From Bacteroidota bacterium (lineage in GTDB: Bacteria > Bacteroidota > Bacteroidia > AKYH767-A > OLB10): a stretch of DNA of 64,000 bases. Below are positions 33,502 to 41,698 of the stretch, piece after piece. Position 1 is the stretch's first letter; the number at the start of each line of letters is the position of its first letter. The position numbers and the translations under genes are program-made. The notes beneath the pieces were generated by a model that was not told where the DNA came from, ran no database searches, and saw only the letters and a program-made list of their open reading frames with translations. The stretch is from contig JAHEMF010000002.1 in assembly GCA_024643795.1 (NCBI GenBank), forward strand, positions 14-64,013, given 5' to 3'.

Positions 33502-34455
33502 TTAAAATACCTTTTCAGCTATTCGTTTCACAATCTCGGCATTACCCATAGTATAGTAATGCAAACAAGGGACCCCTTTTTTCATGAGTTCTTTTGACTG
33601 AGAAATACACCATTCAATTCCCAGTTCTTTTACTTCTGTATCCGACGTACAGTTTTCCAGATCTTTCATTAGGTCGATCGGCAAGTCAATATGAAAAGTT
33701 TTAGGTAGCAGATTTATTTGTTTGAGTGTGGTTATTGGTTTTAATCCCGGGATGATCGGAACATTAATACCTGCTTCACGACATTTATCTACAAAGCTGA
33801 AGAATTTCGCATTGTCGAAAAACATTTGAGTTACTACATATTGTGCACCAGCATCTATCTTCTGCTTCAAATATTTTACGTCCATTGCAATGTTTGGTGC
33901 TTCAAAATGCTTTTCAGGATATCCGGCTACACCAATACAAAAATCTGATGGTTCTGAATCTTTCAGATCTTCATCTAAAAATTTTCCATGATTCATACTC
34001 ACAACCTGTTTAACCAGGTCTATGGCATAGTTATTTCCACCTTGCTCCGGTGCAAAATGAGGTTCTGTTTTTATAGGGTCACCCCGCAACAATAAAACGT
34101 TATTGATACCTAAATAATTTAGTTCTATTAATGCATTCTCTGTTTCCTCCCTGGTAAACCCGCCACATATGATATGCGGAACCGCGTCTGTTTTATAGCG
34201 GTTCATTATAGCTGCGCAAATACCTACAGTTCCAGGCCTTTTACGTATCGAGATTTTTTCAAGATATCCGCCTTCTCTCTTTTTATAAACATATTCTTCG
34301 CGGTGATATGTTACGTCAATAAAAGGAGGGTTGAATTCCATTAACGGATCTATCATTTTATACACAGATTCTATACTACGTCCCTTGAGAGGTGGTAATA
34401 TCTCTATTGAAAATAAAGTTTTATCTGTGCCTGATAGGTGATCTGTAATTTTCAT
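33502..34455 (-). CDS. metF: 5,10-methylenetetrahydrofolate reductase
   Basis: FSIEILPP, LRGDP, VAGYPEKH, TQMFFD and LHYYTMG motifs; start moved to ATG 34455. Confidence 0.93.
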   Translation of the reverse strand: MKITDHLSGTDKTLFSIEILPPLKGRSIESVYKMIDPLMEFNPPFIDVTYHREEYVYKKREGGYLEKISIRKRPGTVGICAAIMNRYKTDAVPHIICGGFTREETENALIELNYLGINNVLLLRGDPIKTEPHFAPEQGGNNYAIDLVKQVVSMNHGKFLDEDLKDSEPSDFCIGVAGYPEKHFEAPNIAMDVKYLKQKIDAGAQYVVTQMFFDNAKFFSFVDKCREAGINVPIIPGLKPITTLKQINLLPKTFHIDLPIDLMKDLENCTSDTEVKELGIEWCISQSKELMKKGVPCLHYYTMGNAEIVKRIAEKVF

Positions 34456-34487
34456 GGCTGCAATGATAATAAATATGATGGAGTGAT

Positions 34488-34551
34488 AATAAAAAAGGCG
34501 TCCCAAAGGACGCCTTTCTGAGTAAAATAAATTTCAGTTTACCGAGCTCAG
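34488..34551. repeat. 64-bp direct repeat, copy 1 (contains the terminator of 34548..37712)
   Basis: 55/64 identical to 37912..37975 by manual ungapped alignment. Confidence 0.85.
34491..34517 (-). terminator. Intrinsic terminator of the 1054-aa T9SS cargo gene
   Basis: AAAAAA-GGCGTCC-CAAA-GGACGCC-TTT; U tract on the minus strand. Confidence 0.85.
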
Positions 34552-37500
34552 TTGACTTCTCTGAGCAATTTCACGGTACCCTGGTATGATTTTCCGCTCT
34601 GCAGATTCAGGGAGTAGAAGTAAGTTCCGTCAGGCAGATCATCACCGTCCCAGTTATTCTGGTAGTTTCCTGACTCATACACGATGTTACCCCATCGGTT
34701 GAATATTTTGAGTGCGCTGTTAGGATTAGCCTCTAGATTTTTGATGAAGAACACATCATTCTTGTTGTCACCATTACCTGGGGTAAATATGTTAGGGATC
34801 ACCACATCACAAGGTGAGATGGTAACATCATCCTGTCCTCGGCATCCGTTAGGATCGGTAACTTCTACGGTATATACTCCTGAAGCAGCAGGGGTGATGG
34901 TTTGTCCGGTTTCACTGATGATGCTGCCGTTGAGTGACCACACGTAGGAGCTACCTGCATTACCGGCATCCAGTGAAGGAGGCGTAGATCCGTCACCGCA
35001 AATGAGCTGGTTCTCACCCAGCTCAACCACCGGATTGGGGTTCACGGTAAGTGAGAGACTTGAAGAGCCATCGCAACCGTCGTTATTGGTCACGGTTACA
35101 TCATAGGTGCCTGTAGAACTAACAGTGATGGTAGCGGTAGTTTCACCGGTACTCCATTGGTAGGAGTTAAATCCGGCACCGGCATCGAACACAGAGTTCT
35201 CACCGTCACAGATATCGGTATCACCGGTCACCACCGGAGCAGGAGCCGTAAGGTTCACCGCATTAGCAGTGCCTGTACCGTCGCAGGTAGCACCAGATAT
35301 GGTAACAGTAACGGTATAGGTACCTGCTGAGGTTGGTGTAATGGTTTGAGTGGTTTCACCGGTACTCCACAGATAATTTGATCCGGGGTTTCCGGCATCC
35401 AGAGGAGCAAAGGCATCACCCGGACAAGCGAACACATCGGTAATGGAAACCGAAGGAGAAGCGATCACACTGATCTGCATGCTATCGGTACCCTGGCAAC
35501 CAGATAGGGTGGTCACCTGTACTGTATAGACTCCCGGAGCGTTCAGTCCCGGCTGATAGGTCTGGCTGTTGGCTCCTGAAATAGGCTGGCCGTTGAGCAA
35601 CCACACATACGATGAGTTGGGAACGTTGGCCACCAATGCTGTAGGTGAATCATTATCACAAATGGTCTGGTCCGGGCCGATGGTTACCACCAGCTGAGCA
35701 GCAATGCTGATAGCTACCGAGTCGGTACCCACACAGTTGGTACCTGAAGTAGATACTACCACGGAATAGTTACCAGCCTGAGTAGGCTGATAGAACTGAC
35801 CAGTAGCGTTAGGTATAGCTACACCGCTATTGAACCACTGGAAGTTGGCACCGGAGTTACCAGCGTTAAGCGGCGGGATAGGGTCGGTGTTACATAAGCT
35901 CAGGTCAGGCCCCAGGTTAACAACAGGAGACTGTTCAATGAGTACTTCAACAGTATCCGTACCGAAACAGGCAGGTGATGCTGTAACGGTAACCACATAG
36001 GTACCGGATTGAGAAGCAGTGATGGTTTGATTGGTTTCGTTAGGCAGGATGTTGCCGTTTAACGCCCATATATAAGTGAAGTTAGAAAGTCCGGCATCAA
36101 GAACAGGAGTAGGGTCGGTATCGCACACAGCAATATCAGGACCGGCACTCACGATAAGGTTGTTGATGATATTAAGCACCGCCAGAGTATCACCGGCGTT
36201 GATATAGGTTCCGCAATCGTTCGTAAATGTGTTGTTGTCGGTACCATTTTGAACAATGAGGTACACCGGAGTAGCTGGAGAAATGTTGCTACCCACACTG
36301 AAGGTGATGGAGTTTGAAACGCCGTTACCACCGGGGCAGTTCGTCACTGCAGTTACCGGATACTGGGTTCCGTTGGCATCCACCAAGAAGAATTCGGATC
36401 CGCCACCCGATAAGGTATTGCATTGCACATTGTACTGGAAGGTTACAGTAATATCGTTGAAGGTACATCCTACATTGAGCACCTCAGTATCAAAGATACC
36501 TGGATCGATAACCTCGTAACCTAGTGAATCAAATTCAGGCATCTCAACACCACATTCACTCAGGAATGTGTTGCCGTCGAACCCGGTCTTGGTAAAGGCA
36601 TAAGTTATACCTGCAGTGAGCGGATAAAATACGGTTACCAGAATGCTGTCGGTTTGTCCGTTGGTACAATTGATAGGCACAGCATTAAGAACAGGATTAG
36701 GTGTTCCCTGAGGTGTTACCACACGTATATCGGTAGGCACAATGGAAGCACACTGAACAGGATCCTGAAGTACCAGAATGAAAGTAGTGTCGGCGCATGA
36801 AGCCGTATAGAACTGGGTAGGATTACCCTGTGGATCGGTAGGAGGGGTCCATGCCGGAGCAGAACCGATACATCCACCCACTATGTTGATTTGAATATCT
36901 CTCTTTACATGACCGATTTTAAATCCATTGCGAAACTCTTCGCACAGTACGGCTATAACGCCCACCTCTATTTGAGAAGGTATGAAGTTGATGGTACCTG
37001 TTTGTGGGTCAATAGAAACCGGACCGTTAGTTGCTACAGGCTGTAAACCGCTGTAGCCTGGCTGATATTGCAATGAAGTAGCACCGGGATTACCCTGAGC
37101 ATCCACCAGTGAATATACCAGTGAGTCTCCGTCAATATCGGTAGCACCCTGGTTGTAGAAGAACTGATTACCTACACAGAATTGAGTTACCGGAATGTTT
37201 GAGAATACCGGTGAGCTGTTTGTAGGTGCATTTAAATTATCCAGGAAACTGGTCACATACATATCATCTCCACCCGGACCAACAATAGTTGTGATCTGAG
37301 CATTACGGCAACATAATGAAAATACAAACTGCCAGTCAGAACAGGCAACCGGTAAATTAACGGTTCCCTGATAGATCCATTCTTGCACTCCGTACCCTGA
37401 TCCTCCATTACAAGTAGTTGTTACCGGAGGTAGACATGGCGATGGCGGGATCGGCTGCCCGGTTCCAGGAATGGCTTGCAGGGTAATATTTCCTCCTGCC

Positions 37501-37712
37501 GCACAGCTGGAGCTATAATTCACTGTAGTGCTGGTTGGAGCTGTAATACCGTCACAGTCTCTGTAAAACCTTAAGGTTACTAGGTATTGGTTAGGACCTA
37601 TGTATTCATATGTAACGTCGGCACCTACGCCATGAGAGGCAAATGCCTCGTCAGCAGGTAGTGCAAATACTGCAACCAGGGCTGTCACAAGGATCGATAA
37701 TAGCTTTTTCAT
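34548..37712 (-). CDS. Large secreted T9SS cargo/adhesin with six Cys-containing Ig-like repeats and a type B (gliding motility-associated) C-terminal domain
   Basis: Signal peptide (AFA-SH); N-terminal SHGVGAD..Y..LRFYRDC domain; six ~75-80 aa repeats (LGPD..C..LDAG..Y.W..GTY.V.VT..C.GTD); CTD IPNIFTPGNGDNKNDVF..IFNRWG..WDG..GTYFY..GTVKLLR. Confidence 0.88.
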   Translation of the reverse strand: MKKLLSILVTALVAVFALPADEAFASHGVGADVTYEYIGPNQYLVTLRFYRDCDGITAPTSTTVNYSSSCAAGGNITLQAIPGTGQPIPPSPCLPPVTTTCNGGSGYGVQEWIYQGTVNLPVACSDWQFVFSLCCRNAQITTIVGPGGDDMYVTSFLDNLNAPTNSSPVFSNIPVTQFCVGNQFFYNQGATDIDGDSLVYSLVDAQGNPGATSLQYQPGYSGLQPVATNGPVSIDPQTGTINFIPSQIEVGVIAVLCEEFRNGFKIGHVKRDIQINIVGGCIGSAPAWTPPTDPQGNPTQFYTASCADTTFILVLQDPVQCASIVPTDIRVVTPQGTPNPVLNAVPINCTNGQTDSILVTVFYPLTAGITYAFTKTGFDGNTFLSECGVEMPEFDSLGYEVIDPGIFDTEVLNVGCTFNDITVTFQYNVQCNTLSGGGSEFFLVDANGTQYPVTAVTNCPGGNGVSNSITFSVGSNISPATPVYLIVQNGTDNNTFTNDCGTYINAGDTLAVLNIINNLIVSAGPDIAVCDTDPTPVLDAGLSNFTYIWALNGNILPNETNQTITASQSGTYVVTVTASPACFGTDTVEVLIEQSPVVNLGPDLSLCNTDPIPPLNAGNSGANFQWFNSGVAIPNATGQFYQPTQAGNYSVVVSTSGTNCVGTDSVAISIAAQLVVTIGPDQTICDNDSPTALVANVPNSSYVWLLNGQPISGANSQTYQPGLNAPGVYTVQVTTLSGCQGTDSMQISVIASPSVSITDVFACPGDAFAPLDAGNPGSNYLWSTGETTQTITPTSAGTYTVTVTISGATCDGTGTANAVNLTAPAPVVTGDTDICDGENSVFDAGAGFNSYQWSTGETTATITVSSTGTYDVTVTNNDGCDGSSSLSLTVNPNPVVELGENQLICGDGSTPPSLDAGNAGSSYVWSLNGSIISETGQTITPAASGVYTVEVTDPNGCRGQDDVTISPCDVVIPNIFTPGNGDNKNDVFFIKNLEANPNSALKIFNRWGNIVYESGNYQNNWDGDDLPDGTYFYSLNLQSGKSYQGTVKLLREVN

Positions 37713-37768
37713 TTTTTCGTTTTGGTTTTTAAGATCTTGGGATAGTTATAATGTATTTCCTTTTGTTA

Positions 37769-37798
37769 AAAGACGATTTGAAGCGCATTCTAGTTGCA
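37769..37798 (-). promoter_or_regulatory. ECF sigma-type promoter of the T9SS cargo gene
   Basis: Minus strand TGCAAC (37798-37793), 17-nt spacer, CGTCTTT; same motif and spacing as upstream of the ECF gene. Confidence 0.75.
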
Positions 37799-37911
37799 GC
37801 TGCAGAAGATAAAAAGGAAATATTATATAAGTATAAAGTGTTTATATTCAGTTAGTTAAATAGATTTAGCCTGAAAAAGGTGTTTTAAAGTCCTCAAATT
37901 CAGGCCATAAA

Positions 37912-37975
37912 AATAAAAAAGACGTCCCAAAGGACGTCTTTTTAAGCAAAATAAATTTCAGATTACAGGGGTCAG
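37912..37975. repeat. 64-bp direct repeat, copy 2
   Basis: 55/64 identical to 34488..34551. Confidence 0.85.
37915..37943 (-). terminator. Intrinsic terminator of the sigma/anti-sigma operon
   Basis: AAAAAA-GACGTCC-CAAA-GGACGTC-TTTTT. Confidence 0.85.
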
Positions 37976-38022
37976 CGGATCTGATGGTCCCTCATAAATG
38001 ATCCCCGGCTGATATCTTAGTT

Positions 38023-39219
38023 TCAACGCATGAGTTTCAGAGTTCCTTTATGATTGTGAACCTTACCGTCATTTCCTGTAGCATATATCACATAAAAGTA
38101 AGTTTCCTTAGGAGCTGCTTCGCCATTACCAAGGTTGCCATTCCATCCAAGTTCAGGATCAGTGAAACGTGCTACCTGCTTACCTCTACGGTCATAAATT
38201 GCCACATCAACTGAGGCTAGTTGCTCAGACCTGATGGTGAAAATATCATTGATACCATCTCCATTTGGCGTAAATACGTTAGGAATGAAATTTTTTAGAA
38301 AATCATCTTCTTCAACTGTAACCAACACGGGTTCTTTATGTGTATTTCCATCCCCATCTTTGAAACTTGCCCATGCAGTATATGTGCCGGGTATCTCATA
38401 TTCATGACTTATTGCTGAACCACCAAATCCTGATGCTCCATCTCCGAACTCCCAAACAACTTCTCCATGGAAGGCAGGAACTTTAAGGTCAACACCCAAA
38501 GGTGCCACACCCTTAACAGGATCTGCAACCAACTCAAATTGCTTCAGCTGAGTTGCTGATTTATCAGGAATATTTTCACGTGTTACTTGACCTGGAGTTT
38601 GCTTTTGTTGTGTGGGACTATTTTCAACTACAGTTTTTTCAGCATGAGCTAATAATACAGGATCACTCTGATCAGTAGCCCTTTGGTTTCCTGACTGAGT
38701 TACACTTACCGGTGCTGAAGGATTAAGCTTCTGAACAGGAGTGTTATTTTTTGCGCGTTTCTGAACAGCTGAATTATTTTCAACAGCTGAACTATTACTT
38801 GAATGGGATGTATTCTCCTCAGATCGGTTTTCCTGCAAATCAGATTCTTCACCCATCGACATGGCAGTTGTATTGGATGGTTCCATCTGCTGCGAGGGAT
38901 CTTCATAAATATTACCGGCTTGCTCAGTGCTTTGACTGTTCTGAACATTTGCAGATTCTTCCTCTTTTGGAGATGCGAAGTACAGTACGGAAGCAGTAAC
39001 AGCCACGATAGCTGCACCTCCCCATACACCCAGCCCAAGCCCTCCTTTGGCACCACTGGCTGCTGATGTTACACCACCTGAATTCCCTGAAGGGGATGAC
39101 GGTGCTGAAGGTGTTGGGATTTGACTCTTGATCGAATCCCAAAGTTCAGGCCTGACCGGCTCTTCATAACCGTTGAAGGTGTCCCTGAATAAATTTTCTA
39201 TGTTTTCTTTCGGTTCCAC
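38023..39219 (-). CDS. Putative membrane anti-sigma factor with a PKD domain and a type B T9SS C-terminal domain
   Basis: No signal peptide; N-terminal IENLFRDTFNGYEEPVRPELWDSI motif; TM helix aa ~61-83; S/N/Q/E/T-rich linker aa ~84-225; PKD (WEFGDG..SHEY..PGTY); CTD IPNVFTPNGDGINDIF..IYDRRG..WNG..TYFY..KGTLKLMR; GTG start abuts the sigma TAA. Confidence 0.8.
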   Translation of the reverse strand: MEPKENIENLFRDTFNGYEEPVRPELWDSIKSQIPTPSAPSSPSGNSGGVTSAASGAKGGLGLGVWGGAAIVAVTASVLYFASPKEEESANVQNSQSTEQAGNIYEDPSQQMEPSNTTAMSMGEESDLQENRSEENTSHSSNSSAVENNSAVQKRAKNNTPVQKLNPSAPVSVTQSGNQRATDQSDPVLLAHAEKTVVENSPTQQKQTPGQVTRENIPDKSATQLKQFELVADPVKGVAPLGVDLKVPAFHGEVVWEFGDGASGFGGSAISHEYEIPGTYTAWASFKDGDGNTHKEPVLVTVEEDDFLKNFIPNVFTPNGDGINDIFTIRSEQLASVDVAIYDRRGKQVARFTDPELGWNGNLGNGEAAPKETYFYVIYATGNDGKVHNHKGTLKLMR

Positions 39220-39759
39220 TTAAACCAATTTTTCTGTTGTTTCTACCAATTTCTGCAAATAAACCCTTGCCCGTGAATATTGTGATTTTGAGGTACTCTC
39301 AGAGATTCCTAGCATTGAAGCTATCTCTTTGTGGGCAAAACCCTCTACTGCATATAAATTAAATACTGTTCTGAATCCTGGTGGCATGGTTCTCATCAAT
39401 TTGAGAAGATCTTTGGCATTCATAGACTCAATTGTATGATCTTCTGCAAATGCCTCTGCACTGGCCACTTCAAGATCTATCATCTTGCCGAACGATTTAT
39501 TCTTCCTTATCTGATCCAATGCGGTATTTACCATAACTCTTCGTATCCATCCTTCCAATGACCCTTCTCCTTTGAAACTGCTGATCCTGAAAAAGACCTT
39601 TATAAAGCCCTCCTGCAGGATATCTTCAGCCTCATCAGATGAACTTGCGTATCGGGCGCATACACCAAGCATCCGGCCGCTGAAGCGGTCGAATAATTGT
39701 TTTTGTGCCTTAGGATCGCCTTCACGGCAACCCTTTGCGAGTTCTTCATCAGGTATCAT
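39220..39759 (-). CDS. ECF RNA polymerase sigma factor (probably ECF21-like)
   Basis: Region 2 AEDILQEGFIKVF and GSLEGWIRRVMVNTALD; region 4 RTVFNLYAVEGFAHKEIASMLGISESTSKSQYSRAR. Confidence 0.93.
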   Translation of the reverse strand: MIPDEELAKGCREGDPKAQKQLFDRFSGRMLGVCARYASSSDEAEDILQEGFIKVFFRISSFKGEGSLEGWIRRVMVNTALDQIRKNKSFGKMIDLEVASAEAFAEDHTIESMNAKDLLKLMRTMPPGFRTVFNLYAVEGFAHKEIASMLGISESTSKSQYSRARVYLQKLVETTEKLV

Positions 39760-39777
39760 TGGCTTGATGCTCAGGTT

Positions 39778-39807
39778 AAAGACCCATAAAAAGGCGATAG
39801 GGTTGCA
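39778..39807 (-). promoter_or_regulatory. Putative autoregulatory ECF promoter of the sigma gene
   Basis: Minus strand TGCAAC (39807-39802), 17-nt spacer, GGTCTTT. Confidence 0.75.
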
Positions 39808-39832
39808 CAGGGGTCATTTATTTTTTCTCTTA

Positions 39833-39840
39833 CAAATCTA
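39833..39840 (-). promoter_or_regulatory. Housekeeping -7 element upstream of the ECF gene (basal expression)
   Basis: TAGATTTG on the minus strand matches TAnnTTTG. Confidence 0.5.
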
Positions 39841-39910
39841 AGAATTAGGGCGTTAGGAAACAACCAGACCGCCCTTGGCATTGGTTAAAAAGCTATTTTT
39901 GCAGCCCCAT

Positions 39911-41698
39911 ATGGAAAACATCCGCAATTTCTGCATCATTGCCCACATCGATCACGGCAAAAGTACACTGGCCGACAGGCTGTTAGAGTTTACAAACACC
40001 GTAACGGCCCGTGACCTGCAGGCTCAGGTGCTCGATGATATGGACCTTGAAAGAGAGCGTGGTATCACCATAAAGAGCCATGCCATACAAATGGACTTCG
40101 AAAAACAGGGCATAAAATATGTCCTCAATCTCATTGATACTCCGGGTCACGTTGACTTTTCATATGAAGTTTCCCGCTCCATAGCAGCCTGTGAAGGAGC
40201 ACTGCTGGTAGTTGATGCCGCTCAGGGGATCCAGGCACAAACCATTTCAAACCTTTACCTGGCCCTTGAAAACGACCTGCACATTATTCCTGTGCTCAAT
40301 AAAATAGATCTTCCCAGCGCCGAGCCTGAGGTGGTGAAAGATCAGATAGTAGATCTTATTGGATGCGATAGAGATGAGATCATCCACGCAAGTGCCAAAA
40401 CAGGAATTGGTATAGAAGATATTCTCGATGCTATCATTAATCGGGTCCCTGCACCAACTGGTGACCCCAAAGCTCCTCTTAAAGCACTTATTTTTGATTC
40501 AGTATTTAATTCATTCCGAGGGATCATCGCTTATTTCAAAGTGATGGATGGTGAGATCCACAAAAATGACCTTGTGAAATTCGTGGCCACAGGAATGCAA
40601 TATGAGGCTGATGAAATAGGAATCCTTAAACTTGAAAAAACTCCAAAGCAGAAAATCGGAGCCGGCGATGTAGGGTATATCATTTCAGGGATCAAAGAAG
40701 CACGTGAAGTAAAAGTAGGAGATACCATTACTCACGTTAAGCGCCCATGCGAAAAAGCTGTCGAAGGATTTGAAGATGTAAAGCCCATGGTGTTTGCAGG
40801 AATTTATCCGGTTGACACCGATGAATATGAAGATCTGAGAACATCTATAGAGAAGCTTCAGCTTAACGATGCTTCCCTGGTGTTTGAACCTGAAGCCTCT
40901 GCAGCCCTTGGATTCGGATTTCGTTGTGGATTTTTAGGAATGCTCCACATGGAGATCATCCAGGAACGCCTCGAACGTGAGTTTGACATGACCGTCATTA
41001 CCACAGTGCCTAACGTATCATATCATGCATACCTTACAAGTGGTGATTTCATGGAAGTCAACAACCCTTCAGACTTTCCAGATCCCAGTAAACTGGACCG
41101 TATAGAAGAACCTTATATCAAAGCTACTATCATCACAAAGTCTGATTTCATCGGCTCTATCATGACACTTTGTATTGGTAAAAGAGGTATGCTTATCAAT
41201 CAAAGTTATCTTACAACCGACAGGGTGGAACTCATCTTTGAAATGCCATTGGCAGAGATCGTTTTCGATTTTTACGACAAATTAAAATCCATCTCCAAGG
41301 GTTATGCTTCGTTCGACTATCATCCTATCGGTTACAAACAAAGTCATCTGGTGCGACTTGATATCAGACTTAATGGTGATCCCGTTGATGCGCTTTCTGC
41401 ACTTATTCATCGCGACCACGCATATTCATTCGGTAAAAAGATGTGCGAAAAACTTAAAGAGCTTATCACACGTCAGCAGTTTGAGATCGCAATTCAGGCA
41501 TCTATCGGTTCCAAGATCATTGCACGAGAAACCGTTAAGGCCTTACGCAAAGATGTAACAGCAAAATGTTACGGCGGTGATATTTCACGTAAACGTAAGC
41601 TGCTCGAAAAACAAAAAGAAGGTAAAAAGCGTATGCGTCAGGTGGGTAGCATCGAAATACCTCAGCAGGCTTTTCTTGCGGTCCTTAAACTCGACTAA
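39911..41698 (+). CDS. lepA: Translation elongation factor 4
   Basis: [36 protein letters not shown] and [18 protein letters not shown] motifs; start ATG 39911 after TATTTTTG (39894-39901). Confidence 0.97.

Follow-up and report, generated by a model that had tools for sequence, protein, structure and literature searches.

The window analysed here is a stretch of 64,000 nucleotides (nt) from a Bacteroidota bacterium (GenBank assembly GCA_024643795.1, contig JAHEMF010000002.1), and our subject is a module of three genes within it, at 34548-39840 and all on the minus strand, encoding an extracytoplasmic function (ECF) sigma factor, a 398-amino-acid (aa) protein that we read as its anti-sigma factor, and a 1054-aa surface protein, hereafter the cargo. 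This three-gene module is real and old. With moderate confidence we read the locus as an autoregulated ECF sigma/anti-sigma switch that controls the adjacent large immunoglobulin (Ig)-repeat surface protein, and in which the anti-sigma factor is of the Dma type, with a type IX secretion system (T9SS) type B C-terminal sorting domain (CTD) as its outer end. A literature search from which most subscription journals were missing returned no description of an anti-sigma factor bearing a T9SS sorting domain. Coordinates below are those of the window, and features lie on its minus strand unless another is given.

The sigma gene (39220-39759) encodes a Das1-like protein of 179 aa, which matches Pfam Sigma70_r2 (6.4e-15) and Sigma70_r4_2 (4.9e-14) as well as TIGR02937 (93.3 bits against a cut-off of 42.9); having only regions 2 and 4 of sigma-70 in about 180 aa, it has the make-up of an ECF sigma factor. 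The GTG start of the anti-sigma gene (38023-39219) directly abuts the sigma stop codon. Its product begins with a putative sigma-binding motif (residues 3-37; 39109-39213), delineated by a hidden Markov model (HMM; 2e-19) and by AlphaFold2 (AF2), with short helices at residues 7-15 and 24-33. A profile made from the first 45 residues, with the consensus E..FKD.F..FE..V.P.VW..I, occurs once in the genome of the window and, among 1.84 billion proteins, matched 1164 representative clusters at E ≤ 1e-3 and 155 at E ≤ 1e-10. Since only 116 of the best 150 matches are at least 300 aa long, and 114 of the 150 carry CHU_C (54 carry PKD_4), nearly every complete member of this family bears a CTD. In many relatives (P0002-P0150; L073, L089, L092, L112, L117, L125, L131) the motif is doubled or tripled in tandem before the membrane segment.

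Modelled together, the sigma factor and the 45-residue motif gave a predicted complex with an ipSAE of 0.62, against 0.00 for the best of three controls; contact agreement in the complex runs was at least 89%, the predicted local distance difference test (pLDDT) score of the partner was at least 70, and the predicted contacts touched both region 2 and region 4 of the sigma factor. Of 80 solved complexes 58 reached the mark applied to such predictions, as did 2 of 110 mismatched pairs, counts that are rough here because our own alignments were used. The model supports binding of the motif to the sigma factor. The motif also has relatives among proteins encoded next to related sigma genes: the N-termini of 13 CTD-type proteins, compared using hhalign with those of 18 partner proteins from Cytophagales, Chitinophagales and Bacteroidales, 11 of them Pfam-confirmed outer-membrane protein (OMP) beta-barrel proteins, aligned with 98.2% probability (E 3e-14). 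This barrel architecture is that of the Dma family, and in Dma1 the first 40 residues suffice to pull down the ECF21 sigma factor Das1 according to the available text of Pardue et al. 2024 (PMC10927553).

These results bear directly on a simpler reading, namely that the 398-aa protein is a small T9SS surface protein that merely sits beside a sigma gene and has no anti-sigma role, the cargo being regulated independently. No curated anti-sigma family matches the protein (Pfam and NCBIfam-type models), its relatives are named only 'gliding motility-associated C-terminal domain-containing protein' in public records, as was the one family member that we looked up, and the second of the two promoter motifs described below is weak by position weight matrix (PWM). 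We nevertheless consider this reading very improbable, as the sigma gene is adjacent in all 52 related loci, with reading frames abutting or overlapping, the N-terminus is homologous to those of Dma-type partners, and the predicted complex passes with all controls at 0.00. Moreover, the N-terminal 45 residues precede the hydrophobic segment of the protein and do not form it.

That segment, the only hydrophobic membrane segment detected by a Kyte-Doolittle window scan, covers residues about 60-83 (38971-39042) and is not modelled confidently by AF2. As about 59 residues including the conserved motif lie before it, the protein does not have the N-terminus of a substrate with a cleavable Sec signal peptide. 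It is followed by a low-complexity, disordered linker of about 145 residues (about 84-228; 38536-38970), defined by composition and by pLDDT, which is below 50 across most of residues 45-222; P, S, T, E, Q, N, K, D and G make up 67% of the residues between the membrane segment and the CTD. The AF2 model, built from 60 homologues, then places two compact beta-sandwiches. The first is a PKD/Ig-like domain (residues 231-303; 38311-38529; PKD_4 1.5e-06 at 254-296) with a pLDDT of about 95, and the second is the type B CTD (residues 312-398; 38026-38286), modelled over residues 313-396 with a pLDDT of at least 90. The CTD scores 67.4 bits on CHU_C (cut-off 27; residues 312-394) and 57.9 bits on TIGR04131 (cut-off 35), which makes it the fifth best of the 23 type B CTDs of the genome, and its hallmark residues P318, N319, W359 and Y374 are invariant in the 60 homologues.

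What such an outer end might do can be read in more than one way. It could be that the PKD and CTD end is never exported and instead serves as a periplasmic sensor, which by binding a T9SS component, PorP/SprF or a stalled substrate would report the state of secretion. The protein does have a signal anchor in place of a cleavable signal peptide, the known T9SS substrates treated in the accessible part of PMC12618676 are all soluble periplasmic intermediates, the CTD is modelled as a compact beta-sandwich that could act as a binding module, and the accessible part of PMC7712824 describes PorA of Porphyromonas gingivalis as a CTD protein that signals into an ECF sigma pathway. A periplasmic sensor would, however, hardly need a disordered linker of about 145 residues whose length class is conserved and which is similar in barrel-type Dma proteins. 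Among 68 CTD-type proteins the median distance from the membrane segment to the C-terminal domain is 152 aa, among 18 of the barrel type it is 117 aa, and the intervening sequence is polar in both. Nor would such a sensor explain why the secretion-signal hallmarks are strictly kept, or why the homologous position in relatives is occupied by a domain that reaches the outer membrane, as the available text of PMC10927553 has it. On balance we regard an outer end that is never exported as rather unlikely.

The gene order is conserved. We annotated 52 loci from 51 genomes that contain the N-terminal motif, using purpose-built profiles: the sigma gene lies directly upstream of the motif-bearing partner in all 52, the partner bears a CTD in 49, and a large gene with the N-terminal domain of the cargo and/or a CTD follows within 450 nt downstream in 48 of these 49 (44 with the N-terminal domain of the window's cargo, 4 with a different CTD protein). 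Contig ends truncate four of the cargo genes in related loci, and three are divided between two reading frames. The gaps are mostly below 50 nt in relatives, which usually gives the three genes the look of a single operon. The first-pass annotation of this DNA had proposed a single regulatory module and listed six features of it (the sigma factor, a sensor, a cargo, a shared promoter motif, similar terminators and the metF and lepA flanks), all of which we found in place; it had also named beforehand synteny across relatives as the point on which its proposal could fail, and the linkage of the cargo gene to the sigma pair holds. By genome, the motif profile was found in 70 of the 82 members of the window's family, in 6 of 54 and 2 of 2 members of two sister families and in 0 of 7 members of the remaining three, that is, nearly always once per genome in 79 of the 146 genomes of the order (a tally that includes the unpublished genome G505), and in 5 of 401 genomes sampled evenly across the phylum.

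Several related loci depart from this layout. One locus (L059; G475:C41) keeps the sigma factor and the CTD-bearing anti-sigma factor, has no cargo and continues directly with metF. A second cargo paralogue, with the same N-terminal domain and a type B CTD, stands in tandem after the first in L023 (5251-11397), and one is found just upstream of the sigma gene in L031, L033, L034 and L068. In L031, L036/L070, L047, L079 and L111, which are metagenome-assembled, either the cargo gene or the anti-sigma gene is broken into two frames or fused to a neighbour, as sequencing frameshifts or true pseudogenes could produce.

Beyond the order, a scan of 185,579 species genomes with an alignment of the sigma factor yielded 80 loci across Bacteroidota. 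The next gene encodes a protein with the N-terminal motif and a CTD in 27 of them (Crocinitomicaceae and further Flavobacteriales, Crocinitomix catalasitica ATCC 23190 among them), and in the rest a membrane protein in which a visibly similar N-terminal motif is followed either by a short tail or by an outer-membrane beta-barrel at the C-terminus; among the partner proteins tested, 15 matched Pfam OMP_b-brl or OMP_b-brl_2. In a quick, unrooted tree of 133 sigma sequences, with barrel labels assigned by a local profile built on Pfam-confirmed barrel proteins, all 77 CTD-type pairs fall in one group of 81 rows (SH-aLRT 94), surrounded by barrel-type and short-type pairs, and the sigma factor of the window lies in the CTD-type part. 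The CTD-type label requires 5 changes on this tree, against a mean of 42 with shuffled labels, a pattern that is compatible with a single origin of the CTD-type pairs. Five Crocinitomicaceae loci (L072, L076, L077, L080 and L088) have the pair in another conserved neighbourhood, which lacks lepA, metF and an adjacent CTD cargo and has, upstream, a divergent gene for a protein of about 415-440 aa. The motif TGCAAC-N18-GTCT still precedes the sigma gene in 5 of 6 loci examined.

The same motif links the switch to its presumed target in the window. An ECF-type promoter-like element, TGCAAC-N18-GTCT(TT), lies about 20 nt upstream of the sigma start codon (P1; 39778-39807), and a second copy lies about 57 nt upstream of the cargo start codon (P2; 37769-37798). 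The pattern TGCAAC-N16-19-GTCTTT has 2 matches in the 64-kb window against 0.05 expected, and a pair of matches arose in none of 100 shuffles; across the whole genome it matches 5 times, with about 2 strict matches expected by chance. P1 is conserved: the strict form TGCAAC-N17-19-[AG]TCT precedes the sigma gene in 41 of the 52 related loci, with a fixed span of 28 nt in 39 of the 41, and P1 scores 21.6 bits, second best in the genome, with a PWM trained on the sigma promoters of relatives. Between partner and cargo, the strict motif is present in 4 of 52 relatives (L018, L022, L056 and L057), and a TGCATC variant occupies this spacer in 6 further loci, those of the window's nearest relatives; the sigma-type promoter recurs ahead of the cargo gene in lineages other than the window's. 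In the genome of the window a spacer of 310 nt separates the anti-sigma gene from the cargo gene, which forms a transcription unit of its own and has its own sigma-type promoter copy. The consensus TAnnTTTG, quoted in PMC9723704 as the -7 box of the Bacteroidota primary sigma factor, has a match, TAGATTTG, at 39833-39840, upstream of the sigma gene and of P1; with 4 matches in 4194 nt against 3.7 expected this box occurs at chance level and is weak evidence, and the spacer between the anti-sigma and cargo genes contains none.

A search for further targets was less productive. Scanning the genome with the PWM gave 4 hits that exceed the maximum seen in shuffles (about 16.6 bits per Mb), one of which is the sigma promoter. 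Two others (C98:4230 and C22:2961) are intragenic and antisense and were taken as chance. The fourth, at C51:3879-3922 on the minus strand (L150), scores 19.7 bits, is also a strict-pattern match, and overlaps the stop codon of a gene for a leucine-rich repeat (LRR) protein; it lies about 190 nt upstream of a gene whose 555-aa product bears a type A T9SS sorting domain (Por_Secre_tail, 2e-09) and which is by sequence a possible further member of the regulon. Applying the strict pattern to the genome of the cultured relative that holds L077 (Crocinitomix catalasitica ATCC 23190) was abandoned as too noisy, with 33 matches against 12 in a reversed control, and this genome has no strict motif before its own sigma gene.

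The product of the cargo gene (34548-37712) is a surface protein made up throughout of Ig-like domains. Its N-terminus resembles a signal peptide as judged by eye, the first 440 aa were modelled as a chain of Ig-like sandwiches with a pLDDT of 85, and the remainder matches families of the Ig/PKD type up to a type B CTD at residues about 971-1051 (34560-34802), which scores 80.7 bits on CHU_C (cut-off 27) and 52.8 bits on TIGR04131 (cut-off 35). A fold search of the N-terminus against the PDB returned only generic multi-Ig matches (TM 0.14-0.22), from which no specific function of the cargo follows. Contigs from two metatranscriptome libraries, made from a sample that is possibly the window's own source, cover parts of 34914-36281 at 99% identity or more; they attest to the presence of this RNA and carry no information on starts, ends, strand or level. 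They lie on the cargo only, and the uncovered sigma, anti-sigma, metF and lepA genes allow no conclusion.

Because the sensor and the cargo both carry a type B CTD above the curated cut-offs, as the first-pass annotation had observed, it had gone on to suggest that the tethered CTD is a decoy, which competes with the CTD of the cargo over a common PorP/SprF shuttle or over the translocon, so that the sigma factor would track free secretion or anchoring capacity. The genome has one gene for the SprA translocon (2657 bits), so anti-sigma factor and cargo must both use SprA if both are exported. It also has eight PorP/SprF hits above the cut-off (one truncated at a contig end) and one 28-residue fragment below it; both proteins are orphans without an adjacent porP/sprF gene, and sigma and cargo genes have a promoter motif in common. 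For Flavobacterium johnsoniae, the accessible part of PMC12618676 reports that a single orphan shuttle serves three orphan type B substrates and that secretion is limited by shuttles, which are scarce. All of this would suit a decoy. The three shuttle-sharing orphans, however, have CTDs that are more than 44% identical, and crosstalk, which the authors tie to high identity, was shown for a CTD pair at 68% identity, most CTD pairs of that species being 20-30% identical (PMC12618676, same part).

The CTDs of the anti-sigma factor and the cargo are 34% identical, and among the 23 type B CTDs of the genome the cargo CTD is only 20th by likeness to the anti-sigma CTD, which in turn is 22nd by likeness to the cargo CTD. 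In a tree of 122 CTDs, the cargo CTDs fall in a starred clade whose 51 rows include no anti-sigma CTD, and the 49 anti-sigma CTDs cluster on their own, a single clade for them not being rejected (p-AU 0.30); by sequence, the two CTDs belong to different old lineages. In addition, the pair occurs without an adjacent CTD cargo in L059 and in 17 of the 26 wider CTD-type pairs for which at least 3 kb of downstream sequence was at hand, and homologous anti-sigma factors bear a barrel and no CTD, an arrangement that no decoy logic explains. We therefore think competition for the cargo's own shuttle improbable: of the earlier interpretation, the linkage of the three genes into a module stands, the shuttle decoy is not supported, and competition at the single SprA translocon may yet play a part.

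In the envelope-spanning arrangement that we prefer, the two-helix N-terminal motif of about 35 residues would hold the sigma factor in the cytoplasm, and, after a single membrane helix, the roughly 145 disordered residues could cross the periplasm. The T9SS would take up the sorting domain, by which the far end of the inhibitor would be carried to or through the outer membrane, and a PorP/SprF-type partner would hold it there, in the place that the barrel has in Dma proteins. The integrity of an inhibitor that spans the envelope in this way, and with it the release of the sigma factor, would depend on whether the T9SS works and on what happens at the cell surface. Release would presumably occur by proteolysis, as proposed for Dma1, and the sigma factor, once free, would then use P1 to transcribe its own operon and P2 to transcribe the cargo gene. 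The coupling could have either sign, in that secretion could switch the sigma factor on or off. A mechanical variant can also be imagined, in which, much as in Notch activation, the T9SS driven by the proton-motive force grips the CTD, pulls or threads the linker and thereby exposes the anti-sigma factor to cleavage, freeing the sigma factor. We give this variant a low probability; were it true, a costly type B surface protein would be made only while the export machine runs, and the T9SS would for the first time be seen to act on a substrate anchored in the inner membrane.

A number of points weigh against an envelope-spanning, Dma-type inhibitor. To our knowledge, T9SS export of a protein tethered to the inner membrane has never been shown. 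The T9SS substrates known from the accessible part of PMC12618676 have a cleavable signal peptide, and it is hard to see how a hydrophilic linker would stay across the outer membrane after leaving the SprA translocon. The barrel, which is the defining feature of Dma, is absent: no Pfam barrel family matches the 398-aa protein, and AF2 models this part as the PKD and CTD sandwiches. A genome-wide PorP/SprF search placed no porP/sprF gene next to the module. The sigma factor scores 80 bits on its nearest curated model, NCBIfam sigma_PG0214, which is below the cut-off of 130. The score of the predicted complex expresses the confidence of the model, and sigma/anti-sigma pairs resemble complexes already solved. 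Finally, P2 scores below 11 bits with the PWM trained on the sigma promoters of relatives, so that it is the regular-expression match that speaks for its activity.

The three genes are also marked by a pair of similar terminators. An intrinsic-terminator hairpin with a U-run follows the anti-sigma gene (T1; 37916-37943, within a homologous flank at 37905-37965) and a homologous one follows the cargo gene (T2; 34492-34519, flank 34481-34541), with folding energies of -16.9 kcal/mol (z -5.0) for T1 and -19.2 kcal/mol (z -5.7) for T2. Over about 55 nt around each, the two match at nearly every base, and a single A-U/G-C change in the stem is compensatory. The terminator core CGTCCTTTGGGACG occurs only at 37923-37936 and 34499-34512, the pair with its full flank is unique in the 2.88-Mb genome, and the hairpin with its flank is present in none of the loci that we fetched from relatives. 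The likeness extends 5' of the hairpin, where the two copies have the stretch CUGAAAUUUAUUUU in common. A recent duplication of the CTD-encoding 3' end was considered and rejected, given that the coding parts align poorly and the CTDs (34% identical) fall in separate clades; as the coding 3' ends are unlike, the terminator was copied on its own, in this lineage.

The module is flanked by metF (33502-34455; TIGR00676, 317 bits), outside the module on the same strand, and by lepA (39875-41698, plus strand; TIGR01393, 1002 bits), which is divergent from the sigma gene. The genome comprises 2.88 Mb in 110 contigs with a G+C content of 39.8%. The cargo gene is richer, at 46-52% (46-47% at both ends and 52% in the middle), compared with 35-42% in neighbouring genes; for the raised G+C at 34500-37500, amino-acid make-up (Ig repeats rich in Gly, Thr and Pro) and foreign origin are two possibilities.

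Dma-type anti-sigma factors were described only in 2024, and the CTD form would be a widespread sister form of them in which the barrel has been swapped. Such a swap argues that the far end of the inhibitor mainly needs delivery to the outer membrane, by any route at hand, and the barrel-type and CTD-type forms make a natural pair of constructs with which to test this idea. The design would tie an ECF regulon directly to the T9SS, the known regulation (PorXY-SigP, PorA) being indirect. In this order, moreover, the target adjoins the switch, as a conserved Ig-repeat surface protein with a sigma-type promoter, so that a single locus displays input, switch and output.

How close is the kinship with Dma? 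Dma1 has a single membrane helix followed by a long disordered region, and its eight-stranded barrel was found in the outer membrane and in vesicles (available text of PMC10927553, in which 'T9SS' and 'type IX' occur 0 times). Like Dma, the 398-aa protein is encoded directly after an ECF sigma gene, in one operon with it, and has an N-terminal region of about 40 residues that is predicted to bind the sigma factor and is homologous by profile, the comparison having been made with barrel-type partners. It likewise has one membrane helix, a long disordered linker and a C-terminal module presumably destined for the outer membrane, and both forms are confined to Bacteroidota. Unlike Dma, it has a PKD domain and a T9SS type B CTD in place of the C-terminal eight-stranded barrel (OMP_b-brl_2), and with the barrel replaced by a CTD the far end would depend on the T9SS and not on barrel assembly. 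The regulons differ as well, that of the window appearing to be a T9SS surface protein and that of Dma NigD-type lipoproteins or vesiculation. Because every Dma feature open to comparison is present except the defining barrel, we class the 398-aa protein, on sequence grounds, as a Dma variant and not as a member. The genome of the window has no barrel-type Dma, as judged from narrow and broad profiles of the N-terminal motif and from 13 OMP_b-brl_2 hits, none of which is a protein with that motif. On another contig (C37:31196-34277, plus strand) an ECF sigma gene is followed by one for a protein of 379 aa that looks by eye like a conventional anti-sigma factor, and by a third gene for a separate 472-aa protein with a signal-peptide-like N-terminus (by eye) and an OMP_b-brl_2 barrel end, a layout unlike that of Dma.

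In the FecA-FecR-FecI system, an ECF sigma factor is under an inner-membrane anti-sigma factor that receives an outer-membrane signal through a separate TonB-dependent transducer. The window resembles it in that an ECF sigma factor would be controlled by an inner-membrane anti-sigma factor with an outer-membrane signal, and differs from FecR systems in that the anti-sigma chain itself would reach the outer membrane; a Pfam scan found no FecR domain in it. We know of no described T9SS substrate that begins with a cytoplasmic domain plus a membrane anchor. The anti-sigma factor does so, and lacks a cleavable signal peptide, which sets it apart from the T9SS type B substrates covered by the accessible part of PMC12618676 (SprB with SprF, Fjoh_3952 with Fjoh_3951, and the orphans served by Fjoh_1677). 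It is like them, as is the cargo, in having a CTD above the cut-off, and both resemble the orphans in having no adjacent shuttle gene; the cargo is in addition an adhesin-like Ig-repeat protein, as is usual for type B substrates (PMC12618676, same part). A further parallel may be drawn with PorA-PorXY-SigP of P. gingivalis, in which, according to the accessible part of PMC7712824, a CTD protein likewise feeds information about the T9SS or the cell surface into an ECF sigma pathway. PorA, however, is a free secreted protein that acts via a two-component system, whereas the CTD in the window is part of the anti-sigma polypeptide itself.

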